64,000 bases of DNA from Candidatus Poribacteria bacterium (GTDB lineage: Bacteria; Poribacteria; WGA-4E; WGA-3G). Positions 1-37,454 of the stretch are shown here, in pieces. Position numbers and translations under genes: made by a program. The DNA lies in the NCBI GenBank assembly GCA_009843785.1, contig VYCT01000339.1:4228-68227 (forward strand), in the 5' to 3' direction. The notes under the pieces were generated by a model. The model saw only the letters and a list, made by a program, of their open reading frames with translations, was not told the DNA's origin and did no database searches. Positions within the stretch are counted from its first letter, which is position 1, and each line of letters opens with the position of its first letter.

Positions 1-1
1 C

Positions 2-1765: not shown

Positions 1766-1797
1766 ATTAGAACTTGGGCAGTTCGCGGAGGTGACGA

Positions 1798-2556
1798 ATG
1801 TTAGTGAAATTTCTAATCATTGTAACAGCCCTGTTTTTATTCACTGTCCCTGTTTTCGCAGGCACATTTTTGGAAACCTTTGATCGCAAAGAGTTGGACG
1901 GATGGCAGGAAATTTGGGTGGATAAGGGACCCGCTGTCTGGGAGATTGTTGATGATCAACTGCACGCAGAAAGTCGTGAGGCATATATTCATTTGCTAAC
2001 AACTGGGGATGACACGTGGGAAGACTACACTGTGGAACTTGATGTTAAGCCGCTAAAAAAGCACGGTATTGGCGGAATCTCAATCGCTGTGCGGGTTGAT
2101 AGAACTTGGTTAGTTTCCTGCGATATTTCTGATCCAGTGATTATAAGGGGGGATGATCCTCCGGTTCAAGAGGAACAAATAAGTTGTGGTGCTACTGGTT
2201 TGCACCGGCCACTGCCACCACGTGCCATTCTTATCGATGAACCGCACCCACTTTTAAGATTAAACAGATGGGCACATCTAAAGTTAAGTGTTGAAGGCGA
2301 TATCTTTACCTTCTGGCTTAATGGTGAGCAGATTATGGCACCTACGCAACTTCTAATTTTCAGGGGGATTGATGTCTTTGCTAAAGCTAATTTTCCAGAC
2401 TTTCAGACCGGCGGTGTCGGTTTTGGGCTCTGGAACTATACGGCAATCTTTGATAATATCACTGTCACGGGTGAGAGCGTTCCAAATGGCGGTGATTTCG
2501 CCGTAACGCCCCAAGAAAAACTGGCGACAACCTGGGGTAACTTGAAGAAATTTTAG
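1798..2556 (+). CDS. Secreted DUF1080/LamG-like (concanavalin-like jelly-roll) protein, paralog 1.
   Basis: Signal peptide, with RBS GGAGGTGA upstream. The GW..W..DG.L motifs and the terminal GGVGFGLWNYTAIFDNITVTG strand are typical of DUF1080-type jelly-rolls. The C-terminal tail is ...FAVTPQEKLATTWGNLKKF. Confidence 0.6.
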   Translation: MLVKFLIIVTALFLFTVPVFAGTFLETFDRKELDGWQEIWVDKGPAVWEIVDDQLHAESREAYIHLLTTGDDTWEDYTVELDVKPLKKHGIGGISIAVRVDRTWLVSCDISDPVIIRGDDPPVQEEQISCGATGLHRPLPPRAILIDEPHPLLRLNRWAHLKLSVEGDIFTFWLNGEQIMAPTQLLIFRGIDVFAKANFPDFQTGGVGFGLWNYTAIFDNITVTGESVPNGGDFAVTPQEKLATTWGNLKKF

Positions 2557-2626
2557 ATACACGGCGAAGCAGCAATCAGAAAATGTTTCTAAGTAGCTGC
2601 CGGATTATAAGGAGGTATTTATTGAT

Positions 2627-3621
2627 ATGAAACGTGTGCAAACTTACGTGGTATTAGGGGTGGTATTGTTAAGCAATCTGTTTGTCGGCGGCGGACAAAC
2701 GGCTGAACGTAATGTCATCTCTTTTATTTCCATAACAGGTGGAGATCGTCTCCTCTATCTCATGAATACCCGAGGCGAGATGCTCCGAAAACCTTTTGTA
2801 ATAGGGCCAATACGTTTGTACGGCCTGAGCTGGGCACCTGATGGACGTGCGTTTGCCTATTACTTAAGGCGAGACGGAAACACTGATATTTATGTGATGG
2901 ATGTCGGGACAAATGAACACCATCAATTGACTTTTGACGGTAGCAGAGATACGTGGCCTGTATGGTCTCCGAATGGGAAGTGGATTGCTTTCGTCTCAGA
3001 GCGTGACGGAAGCAAGGACATCTATAGAATGGATGCAAATGGAAAAATGTGAAGCAACTCACGAACATGGGAAGCTGCGGCAGACCGGCTTGGTCGCCAG
3101 ATAGCCAATCGATTGCGTTTACGTCATCATCCTTTCTTTTTTTAATGGATACCGAGGGTAAAAGATTAAAACGGCTCGTAGCAGCTGACCCGTTCGCGCA
3201 TTGTACGTGGTCTCCAGATAGCAAACAAATTCTTTTTTCCGCAAGCGTTGGTGGATGGGGGAGAGAGGAACTTTTGAGCATCGACGTAAATGGAGCAGGT
3301 CAACATCAACTCACCTGGTTAGATCGACCCGCATCCATCTCCGAACCTATCTGGTCGCCGGATAGGAAATGGATTGCCTATTTTTTGAAAGAAATACTGA
3401 AGTTAGAACCGGTTCTCGGACCTGGAAATTTTGATCTGCCGGTCATCTATGTCATAGATACAGAAAACGATGGACACCCGGAACCGCTTGAATCAACAAA
3501 AAGATTGGCAGCCTATTCGCTGGGGTGGGCACCGGAGGGGTTCCTCTCCGTATCTCCGAGTGCAGAGAAACAGACAACACTCTGGGGGAGACTCAAGCAA
3601 TCCGAAGATGCTTCCAAGTAG
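2627..3621 (+). pseudogene. TolB-like PD40 beta-propeller protein, split by a frameshift at about 3040-3052 (ORFs 2627..3052 and 3049..3621).
   Basis: The two ORFs are collinear with the intact paralog 6642..7634. The run 'aatggaaaaatgtgaagcaactc' here corresponds to 'aatggagagaatgtgaagcaactc' there, a 1-nt loss in an A-run. The signal peptide and WSPDG/DIYVMD PD40 repeats are present. Confidence 0.65.
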
Positions 3622-3801
3622 CTGCAACATTATAGGAGAAAGTAGTTACTTTCAAATAAAGGTGGAATCGGGGTTAGAAACCTCTCCTACGGCGAATGTT
3701 AATGGTGATGCTGTTGTGAATATACAGGACTTGGTGATTGTTGTGAATGCGTTTTAGATGTGATTTATCCTATAAATGTTCGCGTAGAATGGAGGGGACA
3801 A

Positions 3802-4557
3802 ATGTTAGTGAAATTTCTAATCGTTGTAACAGTCCTATTTTTATCTCCTTTATCTATTTTCGCAGGCACATTCCTGGATACCTTTGAGGACGGTAATTTG
3901 GACGGATGGCGGGAACTGGTTCCGTGGGATAGAGTACCGGGGTCTTGGGAGGTCGTTGAGGGTGGACTCCACGGGGCAGGTGATGATATATCTCTGCGTC
4001 TATTCACAACTGGAAATGATACATGGAAGGATTACACAGTCGAATTTGATGTCAGGCTCCTTAAAAGAAGACCCGGTTCCCCACGTATCTCGATTGCGGT
4101 GCGGGTTCAGGAGAAATGGATAGTGCAGTGCGTTATGATGGAGCCAGTAATCGTGTTGCCTGGCGGTGGCAATGTGCCAGAAAAAGGATGGGTGCATTGT
4201 TACGCTGGCAGTTTGAACGGTGGAAAAGTTAAGGGACTTCTCTTGGAACCGCATCCACGTTTAAAATTATTCAGATGGGTACATCTAAAGTTAAGTGCTG
4301 AAGGCAATATCTTCACCTTTTGGATTAATGGTGAGCAAGTTATGGAACCTACAGAACTGCGTGTTCGCAGAGACCGTGAAGGTTTTGAGGACTTTCCTGA
4401 TTTTCAGACCGGGGGTGTCGGTATCGGTCTCGCGAATTGTACAGCGCACTTTGATAACGTCACTGTCACGGGTGAGAGCATTCCCGACAGCGGTGATTTC
4501 GCCGTAACGCCCCAAGCAAAACTTGCCACAACTTGGGGACACTTGAAAAAATTTTAG
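3802..4557 (+). CDS. Secreted DUF1080/LamG-like protein, paralog 2.
   Basis: The start MLVKFLIVV matches the paralog 1 start, with RBS GGAGGGG 6 nt upstream. Same domain organisation; the C-terminal tail is ...FAVTPQAKLATTWGHLKKF. Confidence 0.6.
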   Translation: MLVKFLIVVTVLFLSPLSIFAGTFLDTFEDGNLDGWRELVPWDRVPGSWEVVEGGLHGAGDDISLRLFTTGNDTWKDYTVEFDVRLLKRRPGSPRISIAVRVQEKWIVQCVMMEPVIVLPGGGNVPEKGWVHCYAGSLNGGKVKGLLLEPHPRLKLFRWVHLKLSAEGNIFTFWINGEQVMEPTELRVRRDREGFEDFPDFQTGGVGIGLANCTAHFDNVTVTGESIPDSGDFAVTPQAKLATTWGHLKKF

Positions 4558-4591
4558 CGGCAACGGCGATAGCATTGAGAGGAGAATTATT

Positions 4592-5575
4592 ATGAAAATA
4601 GAACGGACCTATACATTCTTTGGCATAACACTCTTGTTGAGTCTATTTCTTTTCAGCATAAATGCTTGGGCGGATACGTATATCTCCTTTAGTTCCAATC
4701 GGGCTGGAAACTATGATGTCTATGTTATGGATATATTCGGAAACAATCTACGCAACTTGACGAATCACCCCGCTTATGACGGGGACGTAACATGGTCACC
4801 TGACGGAGATTCTTTCGCTTTTGTGTCGAACCGGGATGGACACCGCGATATCTACATTATGGATGTCGATGCGATAGCAACTCGACGATTGACAAATCAT
4901 CCAGAGGAGGCTACCCAACCGGACTGGTCCCCCGATGGAAACTGGATCGTATTCAAATCGGACAGAGCGAGCAGAGAAAACTATGATATCTACAAAATAG
5001 GGGTCAACGGTAGAAATCTACAACGGCTCACTAAACATAAAGCATACGATTCGGCCCCAGCGTGGTCGCCAGATGGGAAACAGATCGCTTTCTCTTCCCA
5101 TCGCGATGGAAGTACGGGTATCTTTATGATGAATGCCGAAGGGAAACATCTCAGGCGCGTTACACAAGCAGAAGTTAGAGCGATATCTCCGAGCTGGTCG
5201 CCAGACGGGAAACAGATCGCTTATTCTGCAAATTTTGCGGGCAGTGGTATCTACGTCCTGGATATGCTTAGGAAAGATTTGCGCCGCGTGACGCCTATGG
5301 GCATTTGGAGTAAGCACCCAGCGTGGTCACCCGATGGGGATTGGGTTGCCTACGATATGGAACCTGAAAAGCAGTGGGGCAACCCGAAGGAGTTGGATCA
5401 AAACATTTATATCGTCGGTGCTGACGGAGGTAGACCTCGCCAAATCACAGTGGATGCGGGGAAAGATCGTGATCCCGCGTGGGTCCCAGAGACGTTTTTC
5501 TCTGTATCCCCGAGCACGGAAAAAAAGACAACGCTCTGGGGTAGACTCAAGCAATCGGAAGATGCTTCCAAGTAG
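4592..5575 (+). CDS. TolB-like PD40 (WD40-like beta-propeller repeat) periplasmic protein.
   Basis: Signal peptide plus repeated '(D)IY.MD..G.N..RLT...A.D..P.WSPDG..IAF' units. The C-terminal tail is FFSVSPSTEKKTTLWGRLKQSEDASK. Confidence 0.7.
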   Translation: MKIERTYTFFGITLLLSLFLFSINAWADTYISFSSNRAGNYDVYVMDIFGNNLRNLTNHPAYDGDVTWSPDGDSFAFVSNRDGHRDIYIMDVDAIATRRLTNHPEEATQPDWSPDGNWIVFKSDRASRENYDIYKIGVNGRNLQRLTKHKAYDSAPAWSPDGKQIAFSSHRDGSTGIFMMNAEGKHLRRVTQAEVRAISPSWSPDGKQIAYSANFAGSGIYVLDMLRKDLRRVTPMGIWSKHPAWSPDGDWVAYDMEPEKQWGNPKELDQNIYIVGADGGRPRQITVDAGKDRDPAWVPETFFSVSPSTEKKTTLWGRLKQSEDASK

Positions 5576-5598
5576 ATACTGCATTATAGGCGGAATTT

Positions 5599-6612
5599 AT
5601 GCGTATGAAACGCACCGGCATTTATGTGGCGTTAGGAATAGCGTTTCTGCTAAATAGCAGTCTGTTCGTCAGTATTGGTTGGACGATTGAAACGGATGTC
5701 ATCTCTTTTGTTACAAGAAAGGACAGGGGGCATTCTATCCAACTCATAAATACTCAAGGCGAATTCCTTCAAAGACTCATGTTAGAAGGATCCATAGCCC
5801 ACTTCACTTGGTCCCCTGATGGACACTCAATTGCTTATAGTTCCAATAGAAATGGGGATCCCGATATTTATGTAATCGATGTGAGAACGAACACGCTTCT
5901 TCAGTTGACCTTCGATGATGAGAAGGATTGGTGGCCCGCGTGGTCCCCGAATGGAAAATGGATCGCATTCGCCTCAAATCGCGCAGGGGAGATAGATCTC
6001 TACAGAATGGACGCAACTGGAGAAAATATGATGCGACTGACGAATCAAGGGAAGTGTAAAAGACCCGTTTGGTCGCCGGATGGTCAATGGATTGCCTTTG
6101 TTTCAAAGTCCGCTCTTTTTGTGATGAGTGCTGAGGGGAGAGGGGTGCGGCGGCTCACAGATACATTTTCCACTGGCTGCACATGGTCGCCGGATGGAAA
6201 AGAGATCGCTTTTGTCCCACGAGCGGATGCTGTCGGGGGCACTGCTCTTTTCAGTATTGATGTAGATAGCAAAAACACGCGCCAACTCACTCGGGTCTAT
6301 AAAGGACTCGTAGCAATCTTTGAACCTGCGTGGTCTTCGAGGGGAAAATGGATCGCCTATCTTTTGGTTCAACCGTTAGAAAAACCCCCCGAAGGGCAAC
6401 TCGGTATCGCAGAAGAGTTTTTTGGTAACTCGGTCATTTGTGTTGTTAATACGGCAGACGTGGACGGTGGCGAACCCCTTGAAGCGACGAGAGAATTGGT
6501 CGGGAGCGATCTTCAATGGGTGCCGGAAAGGTTCCTCTCAGTATCACCGAATACCGAAAAGCAGACAACACTTTGGGGTAACCTTAAGCAAGCAGAGAAC
6601 GCCTCCAAGTAA
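5599..6612 (+). CDS. TolB-like PD40 beta-propeller protein.
   Basis: Signal peptide and PD40 repeats. The C-terminal tail is FLSVSPNTEKQTTLWGNLKQAENASK. Confidence 0.7.
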   Translation: MRMKRTGIYVALGIAFLLNSSLFVSIGWTIETDVISFVTRKDRGHSIQLINTQGEFLQRLMLEGSIAHFTWSPDGHSIAYSSNRNGDPDIYVIDVRTNTLLQLTFDDEKDWWPAWSPNGKWIAFASNRAGEIDLYRMDATGENMMRLTNQGKCKRPVWSPDGQWIAFVSKSALFVMSAEGRGVRRLTDTFSTGCTWSPDGKEIAFVPRADAVGGTALFSIDVDSKNTRQLTRVYKGLVAIFEPAWSSRGKWIAYLLVQPLEKPPEGQLGIAEEFFGNSVICVVNTADVDGGEPLEATRELVGSDLQWVPERFLSVSPNTEKQTTLWGNLKQAENASK

Positions 6613-6641
6613 CTGCCTCGTTATAGGAGGGATTTGTTAAG

Positions 6642-7634
6642 ATGAAATGCATGCGATTTTATGTAGTATTAGGGATGGTGTTATTGCTAAGTAGCGGTCT
6701 GCTCATCCACAGTGGTTGGGCAGATGAAAGGGACATCCTCTCTTTTGTTTCTGAAAAAGGTGGAGACAGTCCTATTATTCTTATGAATACCAGTGGCGCG
6801 ATCCTCGAAAGGTTGGCAACACATCCCGGACAACCATCCGAATTCACTTGGTCGCCGAATGGACGTTCGATTGTCTATGACTCCTGGCACGGTGGAAACT
6901 TCGATATTTATGTGATGGATGTGGAAGCAAATACACACCGTCAGTTGACTCTTGATGGTAGCAGGGACCAGTTGCCTGTATGGTCTCCGAATGGGAAGTG
7001 GATTGCCTTCGTTTCGGACCGTGCTGGGGGCAGAACCCTCTACAGAATGGATGTCAATGGAGAGAATGTGAAGCAACTCATAAACAAGAAAGATTGCCGC
7101 AAACCCGCTTGGTCGCCAGATAGTCAATGGATTGCCTTTGCTGCAGAACACTCTCTTTACGTGATGGATGCTGGCGGTAGAAGGTTGCGGGAACTCACAT
7201 GGACGACACGTTTTTCTGAATGTTCATGGTCACCCGATGGCAAACAGATCGCTTATATGTCAAATGCGCCTAATGGGGGCAGCGAAGTTTTCAGCATTGA
7301 CGTAAATGGAAAGAACCGCCGCCAACTCACGCAGTCGGACGGGCCGACACTCATTTGGGACCCTGTGTGGTCTCCGAGTGGAGAATGGATCGCTTATATC
7401 GTGGGCCAGATTCCAGTAGGCGGTGGGCCGGTAGATCAAATTATGACTAATGGGGTCGTCAGTGTTGTCAATACGATAGACGGTGCCGGTGGGCAACCGA
7501 TTGAGGCAACAAGAGGATTGCCAAAACAGTCTCTTCAGTGGGTGCCAAAACAGTTGCTCTCTGTATCCCCGAGTGCGGAAAAGCAGATAACATTCTGGGG
7601 TAAGCTCAAGCAATCCGAAAATATTGCCAAGTAG
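6642..7634 (+). CDS. TolB-like PD40 beta-propeller protein.
   Basis: Signal peptide and PD40 repeats. The C-terminal tail is LLSVSPSAEKQITFWGKLKQSENIAK. Confidence 0.7.
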   Translation: MKCMRFYVVLGMVLLLSSGLLIHSGWADERDILSFVSEKGGDSPIILMNTSGAILERLATHPGQPSEFTWSPNGRSIVYDSWHGGNFDIYVMDVEANTHRQLTLDGSRDQLPVWSPNGKWIAFVSDRAGGRTLYRMDVNGENVKQLINKKDCRKPAWSPDSQWIAFAAEHSLYVMDAGGRRLRELTWTTRFSECSWSPDGKQIAYMSNAPNGGSEVFSIDVNGKNRRQLTQSDGPTLIWDPVWSPSGEWIAYIVGQIPVGGGPVDQIMTNGVVSVVNTIDGAGGQPIEATRGLPKQSLQWVPKQLLSVSPSAEKQITFWGKLKQSENIAK

Positions 7635-7707
7635 TCGCTGTATATCGGAAAAATTTATTGCGACTTCCACATATCTCTTATATTTTCAACCTATTAAGGA
7701 ACGCACA

Positions 7708-8508
7708 ATGAAATTTGCTATTTTGATTATTGGAGGTATTCTCTTGTTCCAGGCGTTCCCTGTTTCCGCTGGCACGTTCGTTGAGACGTTTGATAACTTT
7801 AACTTAAAGGATTGGGAAGAAGTTAACGAGCGGAATGCTCCCGTTGGAGAATGGTGGGGCATCAATGGTATGCTGCACGCAGAAAACAAGGATAACGCGA
7901 TCCAAATGTTAGCTATAAAAGATGCAGCGTGGCACGATTATGAGGTGGAATTAGACGTAATGCCACTTGACAGACAGGGACGCGGGCACATTGTGCTTGC
8001 TGCACGAGTCAATCAGACGCATGCGATTGTTTTTGCGATTGGCAATATCTTCTGGAACGCACCCGCACCGATAGTTTCAGGCTTCATTTTTAACTTGAAT
8101 ACCGGAAGAAGGGTGGGGTTTCCATTGGTGCTTATGAAAATACAAGATTTGTTCAACGGACGCCCGCAAGGTGAAATTGTGGATGAGCTTTTGCGGGTTG
8201 GTGTGGTTACAGATATATGTACAACAATTTTACCGCATCCCTTTCTTGAAAGAGGGAAGTGGACCCAGTTAAAGCTGCGTATCGTCGATAAAACTTTTAT
8301 GTTCTCAGTTAATGGAGAGGTGGTCTTATATCTCACTTGTCTTTTTGACGGCTTCGCTTTCTTAAAAGAAGACCTTAATGTTGGCAGTGTCGGTTTCGGT
8401 CTTGCAGGCTATACCGCTCGATTTGACAATCTCAAGATCACCGGTGAAGATGTGCCAAATCACGGCAATTTGTCGGTCCAACCCCAAGGCAAATTGGCGG
8501 TGACGTAG
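7708..8508 (+). CDS. Secreted DUF1080/LamG-like protein, paralog 3. Its C-terminal tail is cut short by an in-frame TAG.
   Basis: The start MKFAILIIGG carries a signal peptide, and the jelly-roll terminal strand FGLAGYTARFDNLKITG is present. The sequence reads ...KLAVT* where the paralogs read ...KLATTWGxLKKF. The nucleotides after the stop still encode GQLKSEAF. Confidence 0.55.
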   Translation: MKFAILIIGGILLFQAFPVSAGTFVETFDNFNLKDWEEVNERNAPVGEWWGINGMLHAENKDNAIQMLAIKDAAWHDYEVELDVMPLDRQGRGHIVLAARVNQTHAIVFAIGNIFWNAPAPIVSGFIFNLNTGRRVGFPLVLMKIQDLFNGRPQGEIVDELLRVGVVTDICTTILPHPFLERGKWTQLKLRIVDKTFMFSVNGEVVLYLTCLFDGFAFLKEDLNVGSVGFGLAGYTARFDNLKITGEDVPNHGNLSVQPQGKLAVT

Positions 8509-8657
8509 GGACAACTGAAGTCGGAAGCGTTTTGAACCTGACATGTAACATTTACCACAACCGCAGCTGCTAACGACGCAGTGGGCGAAATTAAAAAGAA
8601 ATAAACTTTCACACCTTACTTTTTGTAAGAAGATGTGTCAAGGAGGAATTCGTTAAA

Positions 8658-9680
8658 ATGAAACATACTTTTCTTTATATAATGTTAGGGGTCACCTTGC
8701 TGGTCAGTAATGTCCTGCTTGTTAGCAATAGCCAGGCAGATAGGACCGGGACAATCTCTTTTGCTTCCTACATCCGAAGCCCTGACCTCTTTCTCATAGA
8801 TAGCACAGGTAAGAATCTTCGAGAACTCACAACCGATGATAGAAATAAGCGTTCACCGACCTGGTCGCCGGACAGACGTTTTTTTGCCTATCAATCCAAA
8901 GACGATAAGGGTCTTGAGATCTATGTGATGGATGTCGAAAGCAAGACATCCCGCCAATTGACAAATCATCCCGGTAGGGACCTGTCGCCTGTGTGGTCCC
9001 CGAATGGCAAATGGATCGCTTTTGTGTCTGACCGAGCCGGTGATCTGGATATCTACAGAATTGATGTAGACGGTTCAAACTTAAAGCGGTTGACAAAACG
9101 TGGAGACAACCAAAATCCCGCTTGGTCACCAAATAGTCAGTGGATCGTCTATGATTCCTATCAAGGCGGAGATCATCGTCCAGGCGGCGTTCCGGGAAGA
9201 CATTTCCTCTATGTAATGAACGCTAATGGGGCAAGATCAAAGCAACTCTTAGAAGATCTAAACATATCCGGATGCACTTGGTCACCTGATGGAAAGCATA
9301 TTGCTTTTGCTTCCGGGAATATAGGCGGTGATGGCGTGAATATCCACATCATTGATGCCAATGGAAATAACCGCCGCACGCTAACCAGAGTGGGTCCAAA
9401 TGCGACAGCGAGAGATCCAGCGTGGTCGCCTGATGGCGAATGGATTGCCTATTTTTTCGTGCGCTTGCCAGTATTGAATCCTGGTCAAGCAATTCCAATC
9501 AATCAGGCTTTTCAAAACAATGTCATCAGTGTCATAAATACTGACGGTAAAGACGCAGAACAACCGCTTGAGGCAACACGCAGACTGTCGACCGGTCCTG
9601 TGTGGGTACCAGAGGTTTTCTTCCCAGTTTCACCGCAACCGCAATCATTACCTACGCAGTGGGGGCACCTAAAAAAGTAG
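8658..9680 (+). CDS. TolB-like PD40 beta-propeller protein, a divergent paralog.
   Basis: Signal peptide and PD40 repeats (WSPDRRFFAY, WSPNGKWIAF and others). The tail is FFPVSPQPQSLPTQWGHLKK. Confidence 0.7.
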   Translation: MKHTFLYIMLGVTLLVSNVLLVSNSQADRTGTISFASYIRSPDLFLIDSTGKNLRELTTDDRNKRSPTWSPDRRFFAYQSKDDKGLEIYVMDVESKTSRQLTNHPGRDLSPVWSPNGKWIAFVSDRAGDLDIYRIDVDGSNLKRLTKRGDNQNPAWSPNSQWIVYDSYQGGDHRPGGVPGRHFLYVMNANGARSKQLLEDLNISGCTWSPDGKHIAFASGNIGGDGVNIHIIDANGNNRRTLTRVGPNATARDPAWSPDGEWIAYFFVRLPVLNPGQAIPINQAFQNNVISVINTDGKDAEQPLEATRRLSTGPVWVPEVFFPVSPQPQSLPTQWGHLKK

Positions 9681-9934
9681 TCGTTTTACGCCTACATAGG
9701 GTTTCCGCAAGCACCGGAACACAATACGTAGGACTCATGGAAAAATTACGTGAGTCCTACCTACGTTTAAAAAACACTTCCGAAAGATCCTATCTTGTCC
9801 AATTTATCTTATCAGAAGCTTTCCAAATCCTCCAGTATCAAATTTTTTCAAATCACGCACCCTTTCCGCCTTAAAATTGTATCATTAACATTTTGAATGT
9901 AAACACAATCACGTTTATACTTTAATCAGGGAGA

Positions 9935-12900
9935 ATGCTGATGGTGGAAAACGATGTTCAACTGATTCACAGAATTTTGTCGGGTGATGAAGCGGCATTT
10001 AGTGCTTTGGTGCGAAAGTACCAAAAGAGCGTTCACGCGCTTGCGTGGCGGAAGGTTGGGGATTTTCACATCGCTGAAGAGATTGCGCAAGATGCCTTCC
10101 TCCAAGCATACAAAAACCTCGCTACGCTGAGGAATCCCAACCAGTTTGCTGGGTGGTTGTATGTCATCGCCAATCGACTTTGCCTGAAGTGGCTCCAAAA
10201 GAAAAAAACGCCGGTACAATCGTTGGAGGGTACGTCTGTGGTAGAAGTAGAGCAATCTTCTTATAAACGTTATGTATCGGAACAGCGGGAGACAGCAGCC
10301 AAGGAACGTCGGCATGAAATCGTTGAGGCACTTTTGGAAACGTTGCCAGAGAGTGAACGCACGGTGGTGACACTCTACTATCTCGGTGAAATGACGGCGA
10401 AGGAGATTGGCAATTTCTTAGGGGTATCGGTGAACACCATTAAAAGTCGGCTTCGCCGGGCCCGAGAACGTTTACAAGCCGAAGAGCACCTGATTAGTGA
10501 AACGCTCGGAAGCGTCCAATTGCCCGCCAATTTCATTGAGCGTATTATGCAGCAAGTTGCCGACATCAAACCGACACCGCCTTCGGCTGGAAAACCGTTG
10601 CTACCCTGGATCGCTTTTGGCACCGCTGCCCTTCTTATAATGCTGATGATCAGTGTCGGTGCCCAATACCTTACGCGCTTTCAGAAACCTTACAACTTGA
10701 ACGCCGAATCGGAAACCACTGTTGAAATCATTGACGCACCTATTGTCCTTGATACGCAGGCGGAACCGGATCTGCGCAACCAAGCCGGACGTTCTGATAC
10801 CACGGGTAGGGACAGCGGTGCCGGTGTGCAAGTTTCAGAACCTGTTGTCCCAGTCGCCGCGCAGATAGAAAAGGGACCCCTGACAACACCACAGCAGTGG
10901 AAACCAGCGAGCGTACCAGCGAGCGGCCCCGTAGGCGGCTTACTGGTAAGTTCAAACGGCGATGTCTACGCCGCTTCGGGTCTCGGTATCTATAGATTAA
11001 CGCCAGACACGCGAGCATGGGCCTTCCTCAGCCCTATCGCTTTGAAGAGCTCTACAACTTTGAAGGCACCCGTTGTAATACCGATGGCGGAGCAAAATGG
11101 GACGCTTTATCTTGTTTCTCATGAAGTCCTTATTTCAACCAATGGAGGCGAGATGTGGGAGCCAGTTGGCACCCTTCCCAAAGGTATTCCTGTCGCATTG
11201 GCAGTAACGGATGAAGCCTTGTACCTCCTGCTGAAAGATAAAGGCGTTTTCCGATCTGAAGATATGGGACAGCAGTGGACACCCCTCGGTGGTGAAGTGA
11301 TGGATAGAAACATCTCTGCTTTGGCGACTATTGAAAACACCGTATTTGTCGGAACAAATCAGGGACTCTACCGTATCAATCCAACGCATAGTTCGGCAAT
11401 GGATATATGGGAAAAATTGCCGCTAACTACCACTAAAGCTATCCACTCCTTAGCAACCGCCGAGAACAACCTCTATGTCGGAACAGGCCCCGACTTAGGT
11501 ACCTCGAAACGCGAGGAAATGCGGGAACAGATGTCCGCCGAGGTATCCGCTGGGCGACCCGTGTGGGAAATTTTCCGGTCAACCGATTTCGGCGATTCAT
11601 GGACCGAAATCACACCGACAAGCGAGCCTGCCTTGACATGGTTCTCGCCGGGCATTAAGGTCCTTACTGCTGGAAAAACGCTTTGGGCATTGGGATACAC
11701 TGGGTTCCAATGCCGATCCACTGATGCTGGCGAAACATGGACAAACCATGGATACAAAAAATTGGATCCGCTTTCAATGATGAATTCGTTTATGCTGAGT
11801 GTTTTTCCTGCCATTGGTGTGGATGAAAATATCCTGTTCAAAGCCAGCCTTTTTGGGCTTATCCGTTCAACCGATGCTGGCGAATCGTGGCATCCGTTTA
11901 TGACAGGCATGGTGGGAACCCAGATATCTAACTTAGTCGCCTTCAAAAACGCACTCTACGCCTATACCGGTACGAATATCGCGAAATCCACCGACGGTGG
12001 GATGTCCTGGAGAAACCTGCGATTCACCCCTGATCAATTAACACCAGAATTAGGATCGGCATGGGAGGTCGGTCTTCTACTCTCTTCTTCGCAGCTGGCA
12101 ATTGCTGACCATAAACTCTACTGCCTCGGCAGCGCAGTTGCCGCAAACATAGAAGAGGCACAGCATCGCATCTTCCATCTTTCCCAGAACGGCGGTGCGC
12201 TGGTACTTATGTCGGAAGCTCCTGTTTTTGGTAAAAATCTTTCTATGGAGCCGCCAAAAACTGCATCACAAGAGAAGTCGGAAAAAAATAGACCCGACGA
12301 TGCTCCTAACGATCCTGAGAAGGCCGATGAATCGACAGACACAACCCGCAATCCCATAGCATCTCACAGCGCGTTTGCAGTCAGCGGCGAAACGTTTTAT
12401 GTGGAATATCAGCGGCGGCTCCTGCGGTGGAGACGCGGCGAACCTGAATGGTTCGACACTGGTCTGGTAGACATCGATCTGCGTGCTAACGATGATGGTC
12501 CCGATCATTTTATTCTGGCTGTTTCAGGTGAAATTGTCTACGTTGGCAAACGTGATGGACATCTGTTTCGATCGCTTGATAGCGGGAACACATGGAAAGA
12601 CCTGACCGCAACGTTGCCACTTCGATTTAAACATTTCAACGATATTGTTTTTGCGGATTCAGCGGTTTATGTCGCCACAGATGCGGGGGTCTTAACATCG
12701 GTGGACGGTGAAAATTGGCGCACAATAACCGATACAGTCGGTACACACACCGTCGTAGACCGAGTTGCCGTAGATGATATAACGATTTATGGTGCTGGCG
12801 ATACAGGTGCTTATCAATTGGATCATCGCGGCAGATGGGAACGGATCTCGCCAGACGTACCAAGCAGCGTCATTTCTGTTGCTGTCAAGGGTAACAGGCT

Positions 12901-12961
12901 TTATATTGTTACCGAACGGAGCGGGATGTTTTATGCCGCGCTTGAGAAGAAAAACGATTGA
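9935..12961 (+). CDS. ECF sigma-70 factor fused through a single transmembrane helix to a large extracytoplasmic BNR/Asp-box repeat domain.
   Basis: The N-terminus has sigma-70 region 2 (FSALVRKYQKSVHALAWRKV...DAFLQAYKNL) and region 4 (TVVTLYYLGEMTAKEIGNFLGVSVNTIKSRLRRARERL). A hydrophobic helix (PLLPWIAFGTAALLIMLMISVGA) follows. Then come BNR motifs (STNGGEMW, STDFGDSW, STDAGETW, STDAGESW, STDGGMSW, SLDSGNTW). The last ~150 aa are paralogous to the end of ORF 2..1765. Confidence 0.7.
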   Translation: MLMVENDVQLIHRILSGDEAAFSALVRKYQKSVHALAWRKVGDFHIAEEIAQDAFLQAYKNLATLRNPNQFAGWLYVIANRLCLKWLQKKKTPVQSLEGTSVVEVEQSSYKRYVSEQRETAAKERRHEIVEALLETLPESERTVVTLYYLGEMTAKEIGNFLGVSVNTIKSRLRRARERLQAEEHLISETLGSVQLPANFIERIMQQVADIKPTPPSAGKPLLPWIAFGTAALLIMLMISVGAQYLTRFQKPYNLNAESETTVEIIDAPIVLDTQAEPDLRNQAGRSDTTGRDSGAGVQVSEPVVPVAAQIEKGPLTTPQQWKPASVPASGPVGGLLVSSNGDVYAASGLGIYRLTPDTRAWAFLSPIALKSSTTLKAPVVIPMAEQNGTLYLVSHEVLISTNGGEMWEPVGTLPKGIPVALAVTDEALYLLLKDKGVFRSEDMGQQWTPLGGEVMDRNISALATIENTVFVGTNQGLYRINPTHSSAMDIWEKLPLTTTKAIHSLATAENNLYVGTGPDLGTSKREEMREQMSAEVSAGRPVWEIFRSTDFGDSWTEITPTSEPALTWFSPGIKVLTAGKTLWALGYTGFQCRSTDAGETWTNHGYKKLDPLSMMNSFMLSVFPAIGVDENILFKASLFGLIRSTDAGESWHPFMTGMVGTQISNLVAFKNALYAYTGTNIAKSTDGGMSWRNLRFTPDQLTPELGSAWEVGLLLSSSQLAIADHKLYCLGSAVAANIEEAQHRIFHLSQNGGALVLMSEAPVFGKNLSMEPPKTASQEKSEKNRPDDAPNDPEKADESTDTTRNPIASHSAFAVSGETFYVEYQRRLLRWRRGEPEWFDTGLVDIDLRANDDGPDHFILAVSGEIVYVGKRDGHLFRSLDSGNTWKDLTATLPLRFKHFNDIVFADSAVYVATDAGVLTSVDGENWRTITDTVGTHTVVDRVAVDDITIYGAGDTGAYQLDHRGRWERISPDVPSSVISVAVKGNRLYIVTERSGMFYAALEKKND

Positions 12962-13141
12962 TAGTCCGAGCAATTCCCCATCAAAAACCGCTTATTCTTC
13001 ATCTCATTCAATTTTTTTTCCCATTATGCACATTTTTGCCCTTCAAATTGTTTCATTAAATCATGACTAAAAGTTTGAGCAATTTAAGGGAAAAATAAAT
13101 TATTTACACCCGAAAGTGTTTTCGGGAAAGGATGTATTCAG

Positions 13142-14770
13142 ATGAAAAAAATAAGCCTTTCAATTTTAACCCTACTCTCCATTTTCACTTTTACTTTACC
13201 TTTTGCCGCTGCCGAAGAGTACTTCCATACTCGGACGCTCAGCGGGCATAGAATTGCTGTCTCTGCAGTGGCATTCAAAGACGATAGCACACTTGTCAGT
13301 GTTGGGACCGATAGTGCCCTTCGCTTTTGGAATCTTGACATGGGGGCACAACACTGGCAGACCGAAGTCGGTCTCTTCTTAATCTCTGACATTGCAATCT
13401 CATCGCATGACTCGCGTTTTGTCGTTTATGCCGGCGGACTCTTTTTCCGCCCTTATATTGGGATGTCCTACACAGATGACGGAGACATAAGAGGTTACCT
13501 CGTGGGACCTACAAACACTGTCAATACGCTATCCTTTAAACCCGGGAGTTTCATCCTTGCCAGCGGGAGCAACGACGACACAATCCGTATCTGGGATTTA
13601 ACATGGGACGCATGGAAAAGTCGACCCGTTCGGACACTGCGGGGGCATGCGAATGATGTCGAGTCGGTTGCGTGGAGTCCTGATGGAACACTGCTCGCCA
13701 GTGGCAGTAGAGACCGGACCGTCCGCTTGTGGAACCCAGATAACGGCACCAATACTGCTATATTTCGCGGACATACGAATACTGTAAACTCAGTTGCGTG
13801 GAGTCCTGATGGAACGCTGTTCGCGAGTGCAAGCAACGATGACACAATCCGTATTTGGGACCCAACCAACACGGATGCCCCACTGCACGTCTTGGAGGGG
13901 CATACCGGGAACGTCAATACGTTGGCATTCCATCCAACCGAGGCAATTCTTGCCAGTGGCAGTAGCGATGATACAATCCGCTTATGGGACTCCACCACTG
14001 GTCTCCACAAAGCCACGCTGAAAGGGCATACCGGTGGTGTTAATACAATAGCGTGGAACTCTGATGGGTCACTTCTTGCGAGTGGCAGTAATGACGACAC
14101 AATCCGCTTGTGGGAGCCACTCGCAGCGGTTGATATAACAGGGGACGGTAGTGTCACATATCTTGACATTATTGAAGTAGGGGAGAACTACGGAAAAACT
14201 GTCGTAAATGGAGCAAACCCACGCGCAGATGTCAACAAAGATGGTATCGTTAATATTGAGGACCTCATTGTTGTTGCTAAGGCAGTGGATTCCCAAGCAC
14301 CCGTAGATTCCCAAGCGGCACCTATGCTTGCACAGCATCCACACGATTTCTCCTTCACCGCGAAAGATGTCCAGCAGTGGATCCAAGACGCACAGGATGT
14401 TGGTGCGAATCCACAGACGATTGCTATCTTAGAACGCTTTTTAGCCGTTGGGACACGGATGGCACAACCAACACCCGAAAAAACAGTTCTCTTGGCGAAC
14501 TACCCCAACCCCTTCAATCCAGAGACCTGGATACCCTATCAGTTGGCACAACCAGCGGAGGTCGCTGTCTTCATTCATACTGCGAACGGTGCTTTGGTCC
14601 GGACGCTGCCATTGGGCGAAATGCCTTCAGGTATCTATCAGAGTAGAGCCCGTGCTGCCTATTGGGATGGTAAGAATGCTCACGGAGAGCCAGTCGCAAG
14701 TGGTGTCTATTTCTATACGCTCAAAGCAGGACAATTTACTGCGACGCGTAAGATGTTGATCCAGAAGTAA
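13142..14770 (+). CDS. Secreted WD40-repeat protein with a dockerin-like pair and a C-terminal T9SS/FlgD-Ig-like sorting domain.
   Basis: Signal peptide. At least six canonical WD40 units (GH..V.S.AWSPDG..LAS.S.D.T.R.W). Dockerin-like calcium-binding repeats (ITGDGSVTYLD...DVNKDGIVNIEDLIVV). The C-terminus is LANYPNPFNPETWIPY...YWDGKN..GEPVASGVYFYTL.AGQFTATRKMLIQK. Confidence 0.75.
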   Translation: MKKISLSILTLLSIFTFTLPFAAAEEYFHTRTLSGHRIAVSAVAFKDDSTLVSVGTDSALRFWNLDMGAQHWQTEVGLFLISDIAISSHDSRFVVYAGGLFFRPYIGMSYTDDGDIRGYLVGPTNTVNTLSFKPGSFILASGSNDDTIRIWDLTWDAWKSRPVRTLRGHANDVESVAWSPDGTLLASGSRDRTVRLWNPDNGTNTAIFRGHTNTVNSVAWSPDGTLFASASNDDTIRIWDPTNTDAPLHVLEGHTGNVNTLAFHPTEAILASGSSDDTIRLWDSTTGLHKATLKGHTGGVNTIAWNSDGSLLASGSNDDTIRLWEPLAAVDITGDGSVTYLDIIEVGENYGKTVVNGANPRADVNKDGIVNIEDLIVVAKAVDSQAPVDSQAAPMLAQHPHDFSFTAKDVQQWIQDAQDVGANPQTIAILERFLAVGTRMAQPTPEKTVLLANYPNPFNPETWIPYQLAQPAEVAVFIHTANGALVRTLPLGEMPSGIYQSRARAAYWDGKNAHGEPVASGVYFYTLKAGQFTATRKMLIQK

Positions 14771-14894
14771 GCAATTCCATGTTTCCAGCAGAGTGGTGAT
14801 TTTCAGGAAATCGCCACTCACTGCAATTAAGAGATTTCGACCAGCCCTTTCGCGCGCGTGTGCTTCGCCACGGTGTTTTGGCAGCGTTGTCGTG

Positions 14895-16346
14895 TTATGG
14901 AAGCAATTTTCGCAACGTCTGAATCAGTGTGCTCTCCGAAAACCATTTGCCCGCCACGCGCCACACACTGCTCGAAAACGTCGGATAGACGTGAATCATC
15001 CCGCTCAATTTTCGCAACGGAATCCCCTGTTGCATCGCCAGCACATATTCATGCACAACCTCACCCGCATTCGCACCGACGAGGTGAACCCCCAATATCT
15101 TTCCCGTCCATCGGCTCGCAATAACTTTACTGAAGCCCTGCGTTTCGCCTTCCGCAACGGCTCTGTCAACGTCGTTTTGATCGAGTGTGAACACGTCAAC
15201 ATCGCTGTATTTCTCACGTGCCTCTGCCTCGGTGAGACCACAGCGTGCCACCTCCGGGTCACAAAAAGTTGTCCACGGCACGACGGCATAATTAATGGTG
15301 TTAGAAAGCGGGAAGAAGATATTCCGGAGGAGCAGCTGCGCTTGGAAAGCAGCGACGTGTGTGAACAGGTAGTGTCCAATCACATCACCTGCAGCATAGA
15401 TGTTCCTGACGCTCGTCTGAAGTCTGTTGTTAACTTCAATCCCGCGGCTGCCGACCTGCACGCCTATTTTCTCGAGTCCTAACCCTTCCACATTCGGCGC
15501 GCGTCCCGCCGCAATCAGGATTTTATCAAAAATCTGTTCGGTTACGCCGTTTTCACTATCGCTGGTGGGAGAGGTGTGTAACCTCGAAAATGTGACATTT
15601 ATAGCGTCTTCATGTTGAACAATCTGCGCGATGTTCGTGTTAAGTCGAATCGCGATCCCTTCTTCATGGAGGTAACCGAGCATCTGCTCAGAGACATCGG
15701 TATCCTCTTTTGTGAGGATACGTTCGCTCCGTTGCGCAATCGTCACATCGGCACCGAGACGGTGAAATGCTTGTCCGAGTTCAATACCAATCGGACCCGC
15801 ACCGACGACGAGCAGCCGTTCCGGGAATTCTGTCAACTCCCAAACGGTTTCGCTATCGAGGTAATCACAAGATGCCAACCCGGGTATCGGGGGGGCTACC
15901 GGACGAGAACCCGTGCTGATCACAAACTTTTTGCTGTTGAGCGTGCGCGTCTCTCCGCTTTCTGTATCTGCCACGACGAAGGTATCGGATGCTTCAAAAT
16001 GCCCGTCTCCAAAGATGACATCGACACCCATTTCGCGGAACCGCTCTGGGTTGTCGTGTTCCTCTTCGATGACGTGTTGCGTCCCTTGCACATAATCCAT
16101 CACGCGATGCCAATTAGGTATGGGGTCTTGCACATCGATACCGTATTTCCCTGCGTTTCTGGTGTAATTCGCGACCTTCGCCGCTTTCAGGAGTGCTTTG
16201 GAAGGCACGCACCCCGTCCAGAGGCAGTCGCCACCGATGCGATGCTTCTCCACAAGTGCGGTTTTTTTGCCTAATTTCGCGCCTGCCACAGCAAGCACAA
16301 GTCCCGCGCTGCCGCCGCCGATGATCGTCAAATCGTACGTATCCAC
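14895..16346 (-). CDS. FAD-dependent pyridine nucleotide-disulfide oxidoreductase, class I (dihydrolipoyl dehydrogenase or mercuric reductase-like).
   Basis: N-terminal FAD-binding GxGxxG (IIGGGSAGL). Redox-active disulfide GGDCLWTGCVPSK. NAD-binding VVGAGPIGIE. C-terminal HVYPTFSS dimerisation motif. Confidence 0.75.
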   Translation of the reverse strand: MDTYDLTIIGGGSAGLVLAVAGAKLGKKTALVEKHRIGGDCLWTGCVPSKALLKAAKVANYTRNAGKYGIDVQDPIPNWHRVMDYVQGTQHVIEEEHDNPERFREMGVDVIFGDGHFEASDTFVVADTESGETRTLNSKKFVISTGSRPVAPPIPGLASCDYLDSETVWELTEFPERLLVVGAGPIGIELGQAFHRLGADVTIAQRSERILTKEDTDVSEQMLGYLHEEGIAIRLNTNIAQIVQHEDAINVTFSRLHTSPTSDSENGVTEQIFDKILIAAGRAPNVEGLGLEKIGVQVGSRGIEVNNRLQTSVRNIYAAGDVIGHYLFTHVAAFQAQLLLRNIFFPLSNTINYAVVPWTTFCDPEVARCGLTEAEAREKYSDVDVFTLDQNDVDRAVAEGETQGFSKVIASRWTGKILGVHLVGANAGEVVHEYVLAMQQGIPLRKLSGMIHVYPTFSSSVWRVAGKWFSESTLIQTLRKLLP

Positions 16347-19910: not shown

Positions 19911-20849
19911 ATGCTAAAAAAAATCCAAGCCGTTTTCGTTTTCCTATTCGTCTTCAGCGGCAGTACGACCTTGATGGGAAATGAAACGGCGAAAACATAT
20001 TTTCCGGGGACGTTTGGCAGCTATTGGGTATATCAAGACCAAGATGGAAATGAATTGACACGCACTGTTGATGAAGGCGAAGAGATTGCTGGTGAAGTGT
20101 ATAACATTTTCATTTACGAACCTGAGATAGAAGATTGGGCAGATTGCGCTTATCACTTTCTGCCTTCCCTGTACAGTGTTAATGATGAAAGTATTACATG
20201 CCTCATCGGCGATGAGATAGGAAAAGTGACGAAGGCACGCCTTATCAAAGAGATGGAAACTTTCACCAAGATGGCGAAGAAATCTGTAGAGGACAACCCG
20301 CCACCCGATGCACCTAATCTCTCCTTTGATATCAATTATGATGTAGAGGTCAAGGCACAGGACCATTTCGTTCTGGTTCCAACCGCCACAACGCCAAACG
20401 AAAAGTGGGATACAACCGAGATAAAAGCGAAAGTCTCAATGCAGTATGACATCCAAGGTGTCCCCGCTGATTTTCTCGGAGCAGATGAGATTCCGAAAAT
20501 TATATTTGACTTTAACATTATTGAAACCGGTAAGATCCTCGGTACAGAAACCGTTGAGACACAGGCGGGTACCTTTGAGGACTGTTTGAAGATTGAATAC
20601 CGCACAGCAACCACAATGGAAGTGTCACCTCTCGAACAACATTCAACGAATGATCCACCTGGCGAATCTGTTACGATCCTCTGGCTCGCGCCTAACGTCG
20701 GGATCGTCAAGTTTCATCAAGAAGCAGAGGATATATTGCTGAAAACGATACCGGCACCTGAATTTCAGTCTTCAACTGCAGTCAAGACCTTTGAATTAAA
20801 GAAATATGAAATCAAATCCGAAGCGTCAGTCAGCAACGAAAGCGATTAA
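19911..20849 (+). CDS. Secreted hypothetical protein, tandem paralog A.
   Basis: Signal peptide. Shared motifs with the next two genes are [54 protein letters not shown] and a C-terminal ...YEIKS followed by an acidic tail. Confidence 0.55.
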   Translation: MLKKIQAVFVFLFVFSGSTTLMGNETAKTYFPGTFGSYWVYQDQDGNELTRTVDEGEEIAGEVYNIFIYEPEIEDWADCAYHFLPSLYSVNDESITCLIGDEIGKVTKARLIKEMETFTKMAKKSVEDNPPPDAPNLSFDINYDVEVKAQDHFVLVPTATTPNEKWDTTEIKAKVSMQYDIQGVPADFLGADEIPKIIFDFNIIETGKILGTETVETQAGTFEDCLKIEYRTATTMEVSPLEQHSTNDPPGESVTILWLAPNVGIVKFHQEAEDILLKTIPAPEFQSSTAVKTFELKKYEIKSEASVSNESD

Positions 20850-20915
20850 TCCTGACCTGTAAATCGCGATTCTCGGCGGTCTGTAAACTTCGCAAAATAG
20901 CAAAAGGAACCTTTC

Positions 20916-21815
20916 ATGTTAAAAAAAATGCGGTACGTTTTCGTTCTCTTATTCATTTTCGGTTTCAGCGCAACATTGATGGGAAATGAGTGGGCGAATT
21001 ACTATTTTCCAGATGCCGTCGACAGCTACTGGACCTATGAAGACCAAGACGGTGAAGAATTAACGCGCTACGCCATAGCACCCCAAGAGATTGATGGCGA
21101 AACCTATCGCGCTTTTAGTTATGACCCCGTCTTGGAGGACTGGACAAAATATCAGTATTATTTTCATCCCTATTTCTACCAAGTCAGTGACGACTGGGTG
21201 GCGTTCTTTGTCGGTGATGATATCGAAAATACGACACGGGCGGTCACAGAGAAGCACTGGAATGAGGCTATGGTCGTGATGAAACAACAGTTGAATAATC
21301 AACTGCCACCCGGCATGACTATTGACCTTAATGTAACATACGAACTTGATATAGAGGCACAAGACTATTTCTATGTTTTGCCAACGCCTGCGACGTTCAA
21401 TGAGGAGTGGGAGGCTTCGCGCGTTGATGTAGAAATGGATTTACAGATTGACATCACAAGCAACGTGGACGGTTTTCCACCAACAAGTCAGATGATCACA
21501 ATGTTCTTAACCCTTGTTGAAACTGCGAATGTAACGGGTACGGAGACGGTCGAGACAGCTGCCGGTACGTTTGAAGATTGCCTCATAATTGAGTATCAAA
21601 TCGATGCCTCAATAAGGACTGAACCGGATCTACCAGAAGTGAAAACTATGTTTCAGGATGTATATAAAGGGGCGTTGACAACGCTCTGGTTCGCTCCGAA
21701 TGTCGGCATTGTTAAAATGCTACAGGAATCCGAAAGTACCGACATCGTTAAAACCATTGAGCTAACGAACTATGAAATCAAATCTACTGAATCAGAAAGC
21801 AGTGAAAGTGATTAA
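20916..21815 (+). CDS. Secreted hypothetical protein, tandem paralog B.
   Basis: Same family as 19911..20849: signal peptide and conserved blocks. Confidence 0.55.
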   Translation: MLKKMRYVFVLLFIFGFSATLMGNEWANYYFPDAVDSYWTYEDQDGEELTRYAIAPQEIDGETYRAFSYDPVLEDWTKYQYYFHPYFYQVSDDWVAFFVGDDIENTTRAVTEKHWNEAMVVMKQQLNNQLPPGMTIDLNVTYELDIEAQDYFYVLPTPATFNEEWEASRVDVEMDLQIDITSNVDGFPPTSQMITMFLTLVETANVTGTETVETAAGTFEDCLIIEYQIDASIRTEPDLPEVKTMFQDVYKGALTTLWFAPNVGIVKMLQESESTDIVKTIELTNYEIKSTESESSESD

Positions 21816-37413: not shown

Positions 37414-37454
37414 AACAACAACCCTGTTTGTATGAATCATAGGCGTAATTTTTA

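Follow-up and report, generated by a model that had tools for sequence, protein, structure and literature searches.

Extracytoplasmic function (ECF) sigma factors carrying fused membrane-spanning extensions form a recognised, barely studied class. One of them is SCO4117 of Streptomyces coelicolor, from group ECF52, for whose mechanism there is reportedly partial genetic support. IutY of Pseudomonas putida (ECF243) combines in one polypeptide an N-terminal ECF sigma, one transmembrane (TM) helix and an extracytoplasmic C-terminal part, and it is the only case in which activation by regulated intramembrane proteolysis, through Prc and RseP, has been shown (PMC8999054). It has a FecR-type anti-sigma domain, a FecR periplasmic domain and a TonB-dependent receptor as its partner. 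In the actinobacterial groups ECF48, ECF52 and ECF53, the sigma is fused via TM helices to an extracytoplasmic extension of at most about 400 residues, with a zinc-finger anti-sigma domain (ZAS-like) between sigma and membrane and a proline-rich region; the extension of SCO4117 ends in a carbohydrate-binding domain, and proteolytic activation has been proposed for all three groups (PMC5826349; PMC8999054). The ECF57 (ECF01-Gob) proteins of Planctomycetes, of which there are 5.3 per genome (PMC7826278), join a sigma to a large, WD40-like β-propeller extension and are described with two conserved cysteines linking σ2 and σ4 and with regulation by protein interaction (PMC8999054). Here, we describe fusion B, a single-chain ECF sigma, TM helix and Asp-box propeller protein encoded within a 64,000-nt stretch of Candidatus Poribacteria DNA (contig VYCT01000339.1, positions 4228–68,227; hereafter the window), together with its paralog, its family and its predicted promoter. 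We propose that it is a one-component transmembrane signalling sigma that tethering keeps inactive and that regulated intramembrane proteolysis sets free, and we put the probability of this at about 0.6.

The reading frame of fusion B spans 1008 residues with zero internal stops, and a GGGAGA ribosome-binding site lies immediately 5′ of its ATG. The first-pass annotation of this DNA, made from the letters alone, had described the product as a complete ECF sigma joined through one TM helix to an Asp-box propeller, and Pfam, hydropathy and the distribution of Asp boxes all bear this description out. The N-terminus matches the sigma-70 region 2 and region 4 models well above their cutoffs (PF04542, residues 25–91, 49.7 bits versus 24; PF08281, residues 128–180, 56.5 bits versus 25.7), as it does the NCBIfam sigma70-ECF model TIGR02937 (96.5 bits versus 42.9), and Sigma70_ECF (PF07638) covers residues 9–184 above its gathering score. 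The linker between σ2 and σ4 comprises residues 96–127, and fusion B has no Pfam match to sigma region 1 or region 3. With σ2 and σ4, a short linker and neither σ1.1 nor σ3, fusion B is an ECF (group 4) sigma-70 factor. The named NCBIfam equivalogs, SigW, RpoE and others, all fall under cutoff on it. Conservation, taken as the fraction of 32 divergent family members sharing the majority residue, is highest in σ4 (0.75), followed by σ2 (0.69), against 0.42 in the N-terminal part of the propeller. No other part of the protein being as well conserved, the sigma domain appears to be functional rather than vestigial. Its only cysteine is the invariant C83 (the others lie at residues 593 and 730), so that the two-cysteine feature of ECF57 is absent; fusion B is set apart from that group by description only.

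An arrangement of this kind could arise artificially, from a frameshift, a misassembly or the read-through of separate sigma and anti-sigma genes. We found no evidence supporting such an origin and regard its probability as negligible. The open reading frame (ORF) is uninterrupted, an independent contig, L001, located through a look-up of a neighbouring DUF1080 protein, agrees with its 5′-most 2622 nt at 100% identity, the linker and TM helix are conserved in frame, and the same length and domain order recur, at 55–95% identity, in at least 110 clusters from different assemblies, complete chromosomes included. Frameshift and misassembly are accordingly rejected, and with them the possibility, raised in the first-pass annotation, that an undetected frameshift separates sigma and sensor into two genes.

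The recurrence of the architecture in independent assemblies, which excludes an artefact, also defines a family. At least 110 of the best 120 clusters at 90% identity are full-length (about 976–1020 residues) with the same Pfam set, at identities down to 54–55%. An exhaustive second search, with the ectodomain alone against 50%-identity representatives, returned 19,632 matches at E≤1e-3 and 147 at E≤1e-30. A sigma domain is present in 46 of the best 150 of these matches; among those 150, essentially every protein of 950–1045 residues has the sigma at residues 1–187 and a TM helix at about residues 218–245, the remainder being mostly fragments or very long multi-repeat proteins. Judged from the source names of the homologs, all named members are from Candidatus Poribacteria, and the 30 related loci in species-representative genomes come from Candidatus Poribacteria metagenome-assembled genomes (MAGs), single-cell genomes or uncultured-bacterium MAGs. 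Database annotation of the members does not go beyond ‘sigma-70 family RNA polymerase sigma factor’ and ‘hypothetical protein’; among 10 divergent representatives, the former, from a Candidatus Poribacteria bacterium, was the one name obtained. We found no description of a sigma/TM/propeller family in the literature searched (Poribacteria with sigma or ECF; sigma factor with BNR).

Between sigma region 4 and the membrane helix lie 37 residues (184–220) that share the conserved motif LGS.QLP..F.E.IM..V..IKP (conservation 0.58) and contain zero cysteines and no HxxxCxxC. No anti-sigma family (FecR, zf-HC2, RskA or other) gave a Pfam match on the whole of fusion B, nor at E≤10 on residues 176–300 of three family members, on which the single match, DUF3094 (E 0.017), is irrelevant. 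AlphaFold assigns the linker no confident fold, with a predicted local distance difference test score (pLDDT) below 50, and 37 residues are too few for a class I anti-sigma domain. Fusion B is therefore a membrane-tethered sigma and not a demonstrable sigma/anti-sigma hybrid, and the first-pass suggestion that sigma and anti-sigma-like functions share one chain is not supported in that form. This separates it from its nearest counterparts. Unlike IutY, it matches neither FecR nor any other anti-sigma family and has only the 37-residue linker at that place; its part outside the membrane is a tandem Asp-box propeller, and no TonB-dependent receptor gene was detected by Pfam among the window ORFs scanned. 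Unlike the ECF48, ECF52 and ECF53 proteins, it has no zinc finger (residues 184–220 lacking cysteine), its extension is of about 825 residues with 14 blades, and it is poribacterial. Because the defining anti-sigma domain is lacking, we do not file fusion B with the sigma/anti-sigma hybrids of the IutY/ECF243 or ECF48/52/53 classes, though it may work alike.

A Kyte–Doolittle scan (19-residue window, mean above 1.6) identifies one hydrophobic segment in fusion B, at about residues 220–246, with a peak of 2.13. In the family alignment, Pro221, Pro224 and Gly242, in or beside this helix, are invariant, and the helix as a whole has a conservation of 0.56. On its extracytoplasmic side follows a segment, residues 247–290, with the motif RFQKPYNLNA.SETTVEIIDAPIVLD... 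(family consensus RFQKPY..SE.TVEI.DAPIVLD), which is modelled as disordered and is better conserved, at 0.55, than the N-terminal propeller. We regard it as a candidate site-1 cleavage or docking region.

The ectodomain contains seven Asp boxes of the form S-x-[DN]-x-G-x-x-[WFY], at residues 401, 441, 549, 595, 645, 685 and 880. The BNR family PF02012 matches at 30.2 bits, above its cutoff of 27, and PF15899 at 25.3, just under 27; further Pfam matches are to DUF6242 and Sortilin-Vps10. In an AlphaFold2 model built on a 61-sequence alignment, residues 320–766 and 812–1005 form 14 four-stranded blades, the sigma helices have a pLDDT of about 72, and residues 184–319, comprising the linker, TM helix and juxtamembrane segment, fall below 50. 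Blades 10–14 are the best-modelled and best-conserved portion of the sensor. The top 22 matches in a Foldseek comparison with the Protein Data Bank (PDB) are all GH74 proteins, with E down to 1.9e-20 and target-normalised TM-scores of 0.33–0.62; the best are xyloglucanases (2cn3, 6p2l and others; TM-score 0.53–0.62) at 13–16% identity. Next come the periplasmic glycan-sensor domains of the Bacteroides hybrid two-component system (HTCS) proteins BT4663 and BT4673 (E about 6e-17, TM-score 0.30). By fold, then, the ectodomain of about 690 residues is modelled as a GH74-like tandem seven-bladed Asp-box propeller. It shares a tandem β-propeller architecture with GH74 xyloglucanases and HTCS sensors and differs from them in its low identity (10–16%), in having no GH74 sequence match and in having no Reg_prop or Y_Y_Y Pfam match. 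In a phmmer search of the ectodomain against all PDB sequences, GH74 chains were absent at E≤1, and the only matches were designed ‘Cake’ propellers at E of about 1e-3. In GH74 enzymes and Bacteroides HTCS sensor domains, oligosaccharides are bound between the propellers; the GH74-like and HTCS-like fold makes an oligosaccharide ligand plausible here too, the glycan being a guess. Nothing in the results supports sialic acid specifically.

These structural matches raise the possibility that the propeller is primarily an envelope enzyme or binding protein, such as a GH74-like hydrolase, and that the sigma is an add-on that reports turnover or is nonfunctional. The closeness in fold to GH74 xyloglucanases (E 2e-20), the sub-threshold matches to the NCBIfam ‘F510_1955 family glycosylhydrolase’ (108.7 bits versus a cutoff of 175) and the existence of sigma-less forms of the ectodomain speak for such a reading. 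We nevertheless consider it improbable. At the level of sequence, no GH74 structure is matched and the fold alignments reach only the identities given above; the sigma domain is the most conserved part and is accompanied by a matching conserved promoter (see below); and the same N-terminal module is elsewhere joined to non-enzymatic WD40 propellers. The sigma-less forms themselves point the other way. Two of them, P0150 and P0208, start at a Met just past region 4, and directly 5′ of their start codons are remnants of σ4 (..RLKKEEPM.. and ..KKEEDM..), by which they resemble truncated derivatives. That they might instead be ancestral unfused anti-sigma partners was considered and rejected, there being no sigma gene upstream of either in addition to the remnants. 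In both loci (L036 3970–4003; L038 3941–4005) the K-K-E-E codons preceding the Met spell AAGGAGGA, a strong ribosome-binding site, and intact paralogs that carry AAGGAGGA might therefore also make a sigma-less TM-propeller from an internal start. Fusion B has no Met at that position.

Locus L038 defines the boundary of what is conserved. There, WD40 propellers take the place of BNR repeats behind the N-terminal module (residues 1–356, 48% identity), and interspersed among the sigma-WD40 fusions are plain WD40 genes and a truncated BNR copy lacking the sigma. From this exchange, it follows that the conserved unit is a cassette of sigma, linker, TM helix and juxtamembrane segment, with the first 350 or so residues, on these alignments, forming a reusable module to which different sensors can be attached. 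The sister genes of L038 thus carry the type of extension found in ECF57. Like ECF57, the family also occurs as several paralogs per genome: two fusions are present in the region of the window, and three or four stand consecutively, within 15 kb, in loci L027, L028 and L030. Head-to-tail arrays of fusions were also seen in L025, L033 and L034.

The second fusion of the window region, paralog A, enters the window as a truncated ORF. The first-pass annotation had noted that about 150 C-terminal residues of this ORF (2..1765) resemble the end of fusion B and had surmised that it might be a second fusion. The paralogy is real and longer than claimed, with 41% identity to the fusion B ectodomain over 630 residues (E=1e-147). 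Window positions 1..12556 recur in contig L001 at 100% identity, and L001 reaches 4227 nt further upstream, where paralog A is completed as a protein of 975 residues with Sigma70_r2 and Sigma70_r4 domains, one TM helix and a BNR propeller, confirming the surmise. The two proteins are 48% identical over their full length, and by region the identity is 74% for the sigma and 62–69% for the linker and TM helix, while the propeller has 37% in its N-terminal and 55% in its C-terminal part. Upstream of paralog A, L001 61..2929 encodes a Type_ISP_C-domain protein followed by ORFs of 230 and 491 residues without a Pfam match. L001 opens with 53 nt that match the opposite strand of window positions 30287–30339, some 30 kb away, at 100% identity; this is a short repeat or else an artefact of the contig end.

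An oriented motif, TATGCACCCTTT-N12-TGTATCATTAAT, in which GCACC and GTATC are separated by a 17-nt spacer, precedes 26 of the 30 family genes examined. More distant paralogs have the variant GCAAC-N17-CGTCTA. AAC/CGT is the classic ECF promoter pattern; the two-block layout, and the fit of the variant to that pattern, lead us to class the motif as ECF-type. In front of fusion B, GCACC occupies 9857–9861 as the −35-like element and GTATC 9879–9883 as the −10-like element, and the motif ends 45 nt before the ATG. A position weight matrix (PWM) built from the sites upstream of family genes finds only two matches in the window, at 9854 (+), scoring 46.9, and at 13025 (+), scoring 36.1; the maximum in 20 shuffles of the window is 12.9. 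In L001 there is a match at 2956, upstream of paralog A, with the −10 element AGTCTCT. Over all loci, each of the 44 PWM matches is oriented with the coding strand and, with three exceptions, stands 3–170 nt before an ORF. A scan for generic sigma-70 promoters and terminators over window positions 1..15000 returned nothing above shuffle expectation.

The second match in the window precedes a gene for a secreted WD40 protein. Orthologs of this gene in 10 further loci carry the motif with scores of 38.7–44.6, and they were not among the sites used to build the PWM. Their −10 element is TGTATCA, identical to that of fusion B, in nine of the 10 loci and AGTATCT in the other (L018). Paralog A has instead (A/T)GTCTCT, as do, in other genomes, PD40 genes belonging to its block (L013 4589, L016 119). 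The order [DUF1080/PD40 block]–B–WD40 is kept in at least nine further Poribacteria loci, and B–WD40 in 11. These comparisons suggest that GCACC-N17-GTATC is an autoregulated ECF-type promoter and that the WD40 gene is a predicted target of fusion B. The paralogs have nearly the same sigma and −35 element and differ in sensor and −10 element, and so each sensor appears to drive its own neighbours. The arrangement would amount to positive autoregulation combined with small, paralog-specific local regulons of secreted propeller or lectin-like proteins.

In the mechanism that we favour, the tethered sigma would be kept off RNA polymerase and promoters. A signal received by the propeller, a ligand that may be a glycan or a partner protein, would expose the juxtamembrane segment to a site-1 protease, after which a site-2 protease of the RseP type would cut the helix with its Pro and Gly residues. 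The freed sigma would then act on its own promoter, in a positive feedback, and switch on a few nearby genes for secreted β-propeller proteins. The paralogs would have near-identical sigma domains and −35 elements and be distinguished by their sensors and by their −10 elements, GTATC for B and GTCTC for A. Three observations are consistent with proteolytic release: the linker, TM helix and juxtamembrane segment (0.55–0.58) are more conserved than the N-terminal propeller; they are retained where the propeller has been swapped for WD40 (L038); and Pro221, Pro224 and Gly242 of the helix are invariant. There is precedent in IutY, which Prc and RseP release, and a like mechanism has been proposed for ECF48/53 and for SCO4117 of ECF52 (PMC8999054; PMC5826349).

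Several points weigh against this mechanism. The cleavage step is argued by analogy with IutY and ECF48/52/53, and, as no anti-sigma domain is detectable, the silence of the tethered sigma is something that we infer. Following a site-2 cut, an Ala-rich stub could direct the sigma to ClpXP, by extension from the RseA/RsiW paradigm, and the output could be transient or null. The promoter is predicted from comparative genomics, and no copy of the motif accompanies the PD40 gene at 8658, in contrast to its L013 ortholog. The structural model of fusion B is of moderate quality (mean pLDDT 64.6; predicted TM-score 0.55). Finally, Pfam detected no M50, rhomboid, S41, DegS-type or PDZ-protease gene in 48 window ORFs and two ORFs of L001, the sole protease among them being a secreted trypsin-like protein (31390..33666). 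The proteases of regulated intramembrane proteolysis are normally unlinked to the sigma gene, and the absence of one nearby is therefore uninformative.

The same absence of an anti-sigma domain, with nothing obvious blocking the core-binding surfaces, would also suit a sigma that is active while tethered, in the manner of ToxR or CadC. The ligand would then alter oligomerisation or conformation, and RNA polymerase would be recruited near the membrane with no need for proteolysis. The predicted targets encode secreted proteins, whose co-translational export could bring their DNA to the membrane, and the conserved linker could be a spacer rather than a cleavage substrate. We nonetheless judge this unlikely. 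No sigma factor is known to us to work while membrane-anchored, a 37-residue tether would have to accommodate a holoenzyme of about 400 kDa at the membrane, and the conserved juxtamembrane segment and the Pro and Gly residues of the helix fit a protease substrate better. Moreover, proteolytic release is what activates IutY, the only sigma of the TM-extended kind to have been characterised.

Table 1. Features of the fusion B region, in window coordinates
Feature	Coordinates	Strand	Basis
Paralog A, 3′ 587 codons	2..1765	+	Alignment; full gene at L001 3065..5992
Nine co-oriented signal-peptide genes: three DUF1080/3-keto-disaccharide-hydrolase-like, six PD40 propeller ORFs	1798..9680	+	Pfam, spacing
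10-bp perfect inverted repeat, 13-nt loop, GTAGGACTCA ... TGAGTCCTAC	9728..9760	.	Read from sequence
ECF-type promoter-like motif of fusion B	9854..9889	+	PWM 46.9
Fusion B, 1008-residue ECF sigma/TM/tandem Asp-box propeller protein	9935..12961	+	ORF list, Pfam, NCBIfam
Sigma-70 region 2, residues 25–91	10007..10207	+	Pfam PF04542
Sigma-70 region 4, residues 128–183	10316..10483	+	Pfam PF08281
Cytoplasmic juxtamembrane linker, residues 184–220 (37 residues)	10484..10594	+	Conservation, Pfam, pLDDT
Single TM helix, residues 221–246	10595..10672	+	Hydropathy, alignment
Extracytoplasmic juxtamembrane segment, residues 247–290	10673..10804	+	Conservation, retention in L038, model
Ectodomain blades 1–9, residues 321–766, six Asp boxes	10895..12232	+	AlphaFold strands, Foldseek
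Variable disordered acidic insert, residues 767–811	12233..12367	+	pLDDT <50, conservation 0.17
Ectodomain blades 10–14, residues 812–1008	12368..12958	+	pLDDT about 90, conservation 0.53
Second promoter-like motif copy, GCACA-N17-GTTTC	13025..13060	+	PWM 36.1; 81 nt upstream of WD40 gene
Secreted 542-residue WD40 protein, signal peptide and type IX secretion system (T9SS) type A sorting domain	13142..14770	+	Pfam WD40, 223 bits

The interval between the two fusions is occupied by the DUF1080/PD40 block (Table 1), all nine ORFs of which begin with signal peptides. Because it starts 32 nt past the stop codon of paralog A, the block is probably co-transcribed with that gene and part of its operon or regulon. 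Between the last PD40 gene and the promoter of fusion B lies the inverted repeat, conserved in L011 and L013, which probably ends the upstream transcription unit; the terminator scan misses it because the sequence that follows is A-rich rather than T-rich.

A shared C-terminal tail was seen in the proteins of this block. Among window ORFs of at least 90 residues, all seven occurrences of W-G-x-[LIV]-K are within the last 16 residues of DUF1080 or PD40 proteins between the fusions, encoded at gene 3′ ends 2515–2556, 3580–3621, 4516–4557, 5534–5575, 6571–6612, 7593–7634 and 9639–9680. The tail has the consensus V(S/T)P-x3-K-x-(T/A)T-x-WG-x-LK, all the proteins that bear it have signal peptides, and it is a candidate C-terminal sorting or anchoring tag; three of the tailed proteins gave no match to an NCBIfam sorting domain, and the tail matched no known tag. 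The third DUF1080 gene (7624..8508) ends in ...QPQGKLAVT*, the tag being cut just before WG.LK, and its TTG start is doubtful, the signal peptide beginning at an internal Met (MKFAILIIGG). ORFs 2627..3052 and 3049..3621, of 141 and 190 residues with a 4-nt overlap, look like one PD40 gene split by a frameshift, with the signal peptide on the first and the WG.LK tail on the second; the same split is present in L011.

A different tail is found on the WD40 protein downstream of fusion B, which matches the T9SS type A sorting domain TIGR04183 at 26.4 bits (cutoff 23). The above-cutoff match is shared, together with dockerin-like segments, by the secreted trypsin-like protease of 31390..33666 (−), which also contains CARDB and He_PIG domains. 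A single-cell study reports the structural T9SS genes to be missing in Poribacteria (PMC3909097), which would leave the T9SS-tailed proteins with no obvious route of export.

Elsewhere in the window, three consecutive paralogous genes (19911..22803; 312, 299 and 318 residues) each encode a DUF3108-like C-terminal domain. They are followed by a tetrapyrrole- or haem-related cluster (22800..30181) with genes for ALAD, a class-III aminotransferase (GSA-AT-like), a polyprenyl synthetase, an NAD_binding_7 protein (sirohaem-synthase-like), a cytochrome c assembly protein and glutamyl-tRNA reductase. An island resembling a mobile element, of lower GC content (0.43–0.46), extends over 36115..41619 and encodes an Mrr-type restriction endonuclease, a fusion of N6/N4 DNA methylase and HNH nuclease, and a phage-type integrase. 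Beyond it lies a long series of ORFs, all on the minus strand (44227..60644), in which the AT skew is strongly negative. Pfam matched none of 14 of the 15 ORFs scanned there, among them ORFs of 760, 479 and 462 residues, the exception being a phage lysozyme. The run is likely to be a prophage or other ORFan element next to the integrase.

To ECF sigma factors with fused membrane-spanning extensions, the family adds no fewer than 40 clusters (at 50% identity) whose members are free of an anti-sigma domain and have modular, exchangeable sensors, a predictable promoter and a local regulon. It provides a clean system for asking whether membrane tethering alone silences a sigma, and how paralogs whose sigma domains are about 74% identical avoid cross-talk. 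Synthetic biology, too, might make use of a compact sigma-TM cassette to which different ectodomains can be attached. In sponge-symbiont biology, the family suggests how the secreted WD40, PD40 and DUF1080 proteins characteristic of Poribacteria may be regulated, in a form concrete enough to test. The single-cell genomics paper on Poribacteria describes WD40 proteins with T9SS tails and leaves sigma factors and transcription unmentioned, and no regulator of the secreted WD40, PD40 and DUF1080 proteins is mentioned in the Poribacteria literature searched (PMC3909097). We suggest, tentatively and as the less likely case, that the family constitutes a set of insulated single-protein signalling lines, in which an anti-sigma-free cassette of about 290 residues (sigma, linker, TM helix and juxtamembrane segment) is combined with swapped propellers, GH74-like Asp-box or WD40, in arrays of up to four, with paralog-specific −10 elements and secreted, symbiosis-type outputs. 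These outputs would be the ‘eukaryote-like’ WD40 proteins with a T9SS tail and the PD40 and DUF1080 proteins, long suspected as mediators of sponge symbiosis. If this is true, the fusions would be the first identified regulators of those symbiosis factors, and natural sensor-swappable sigma factors.

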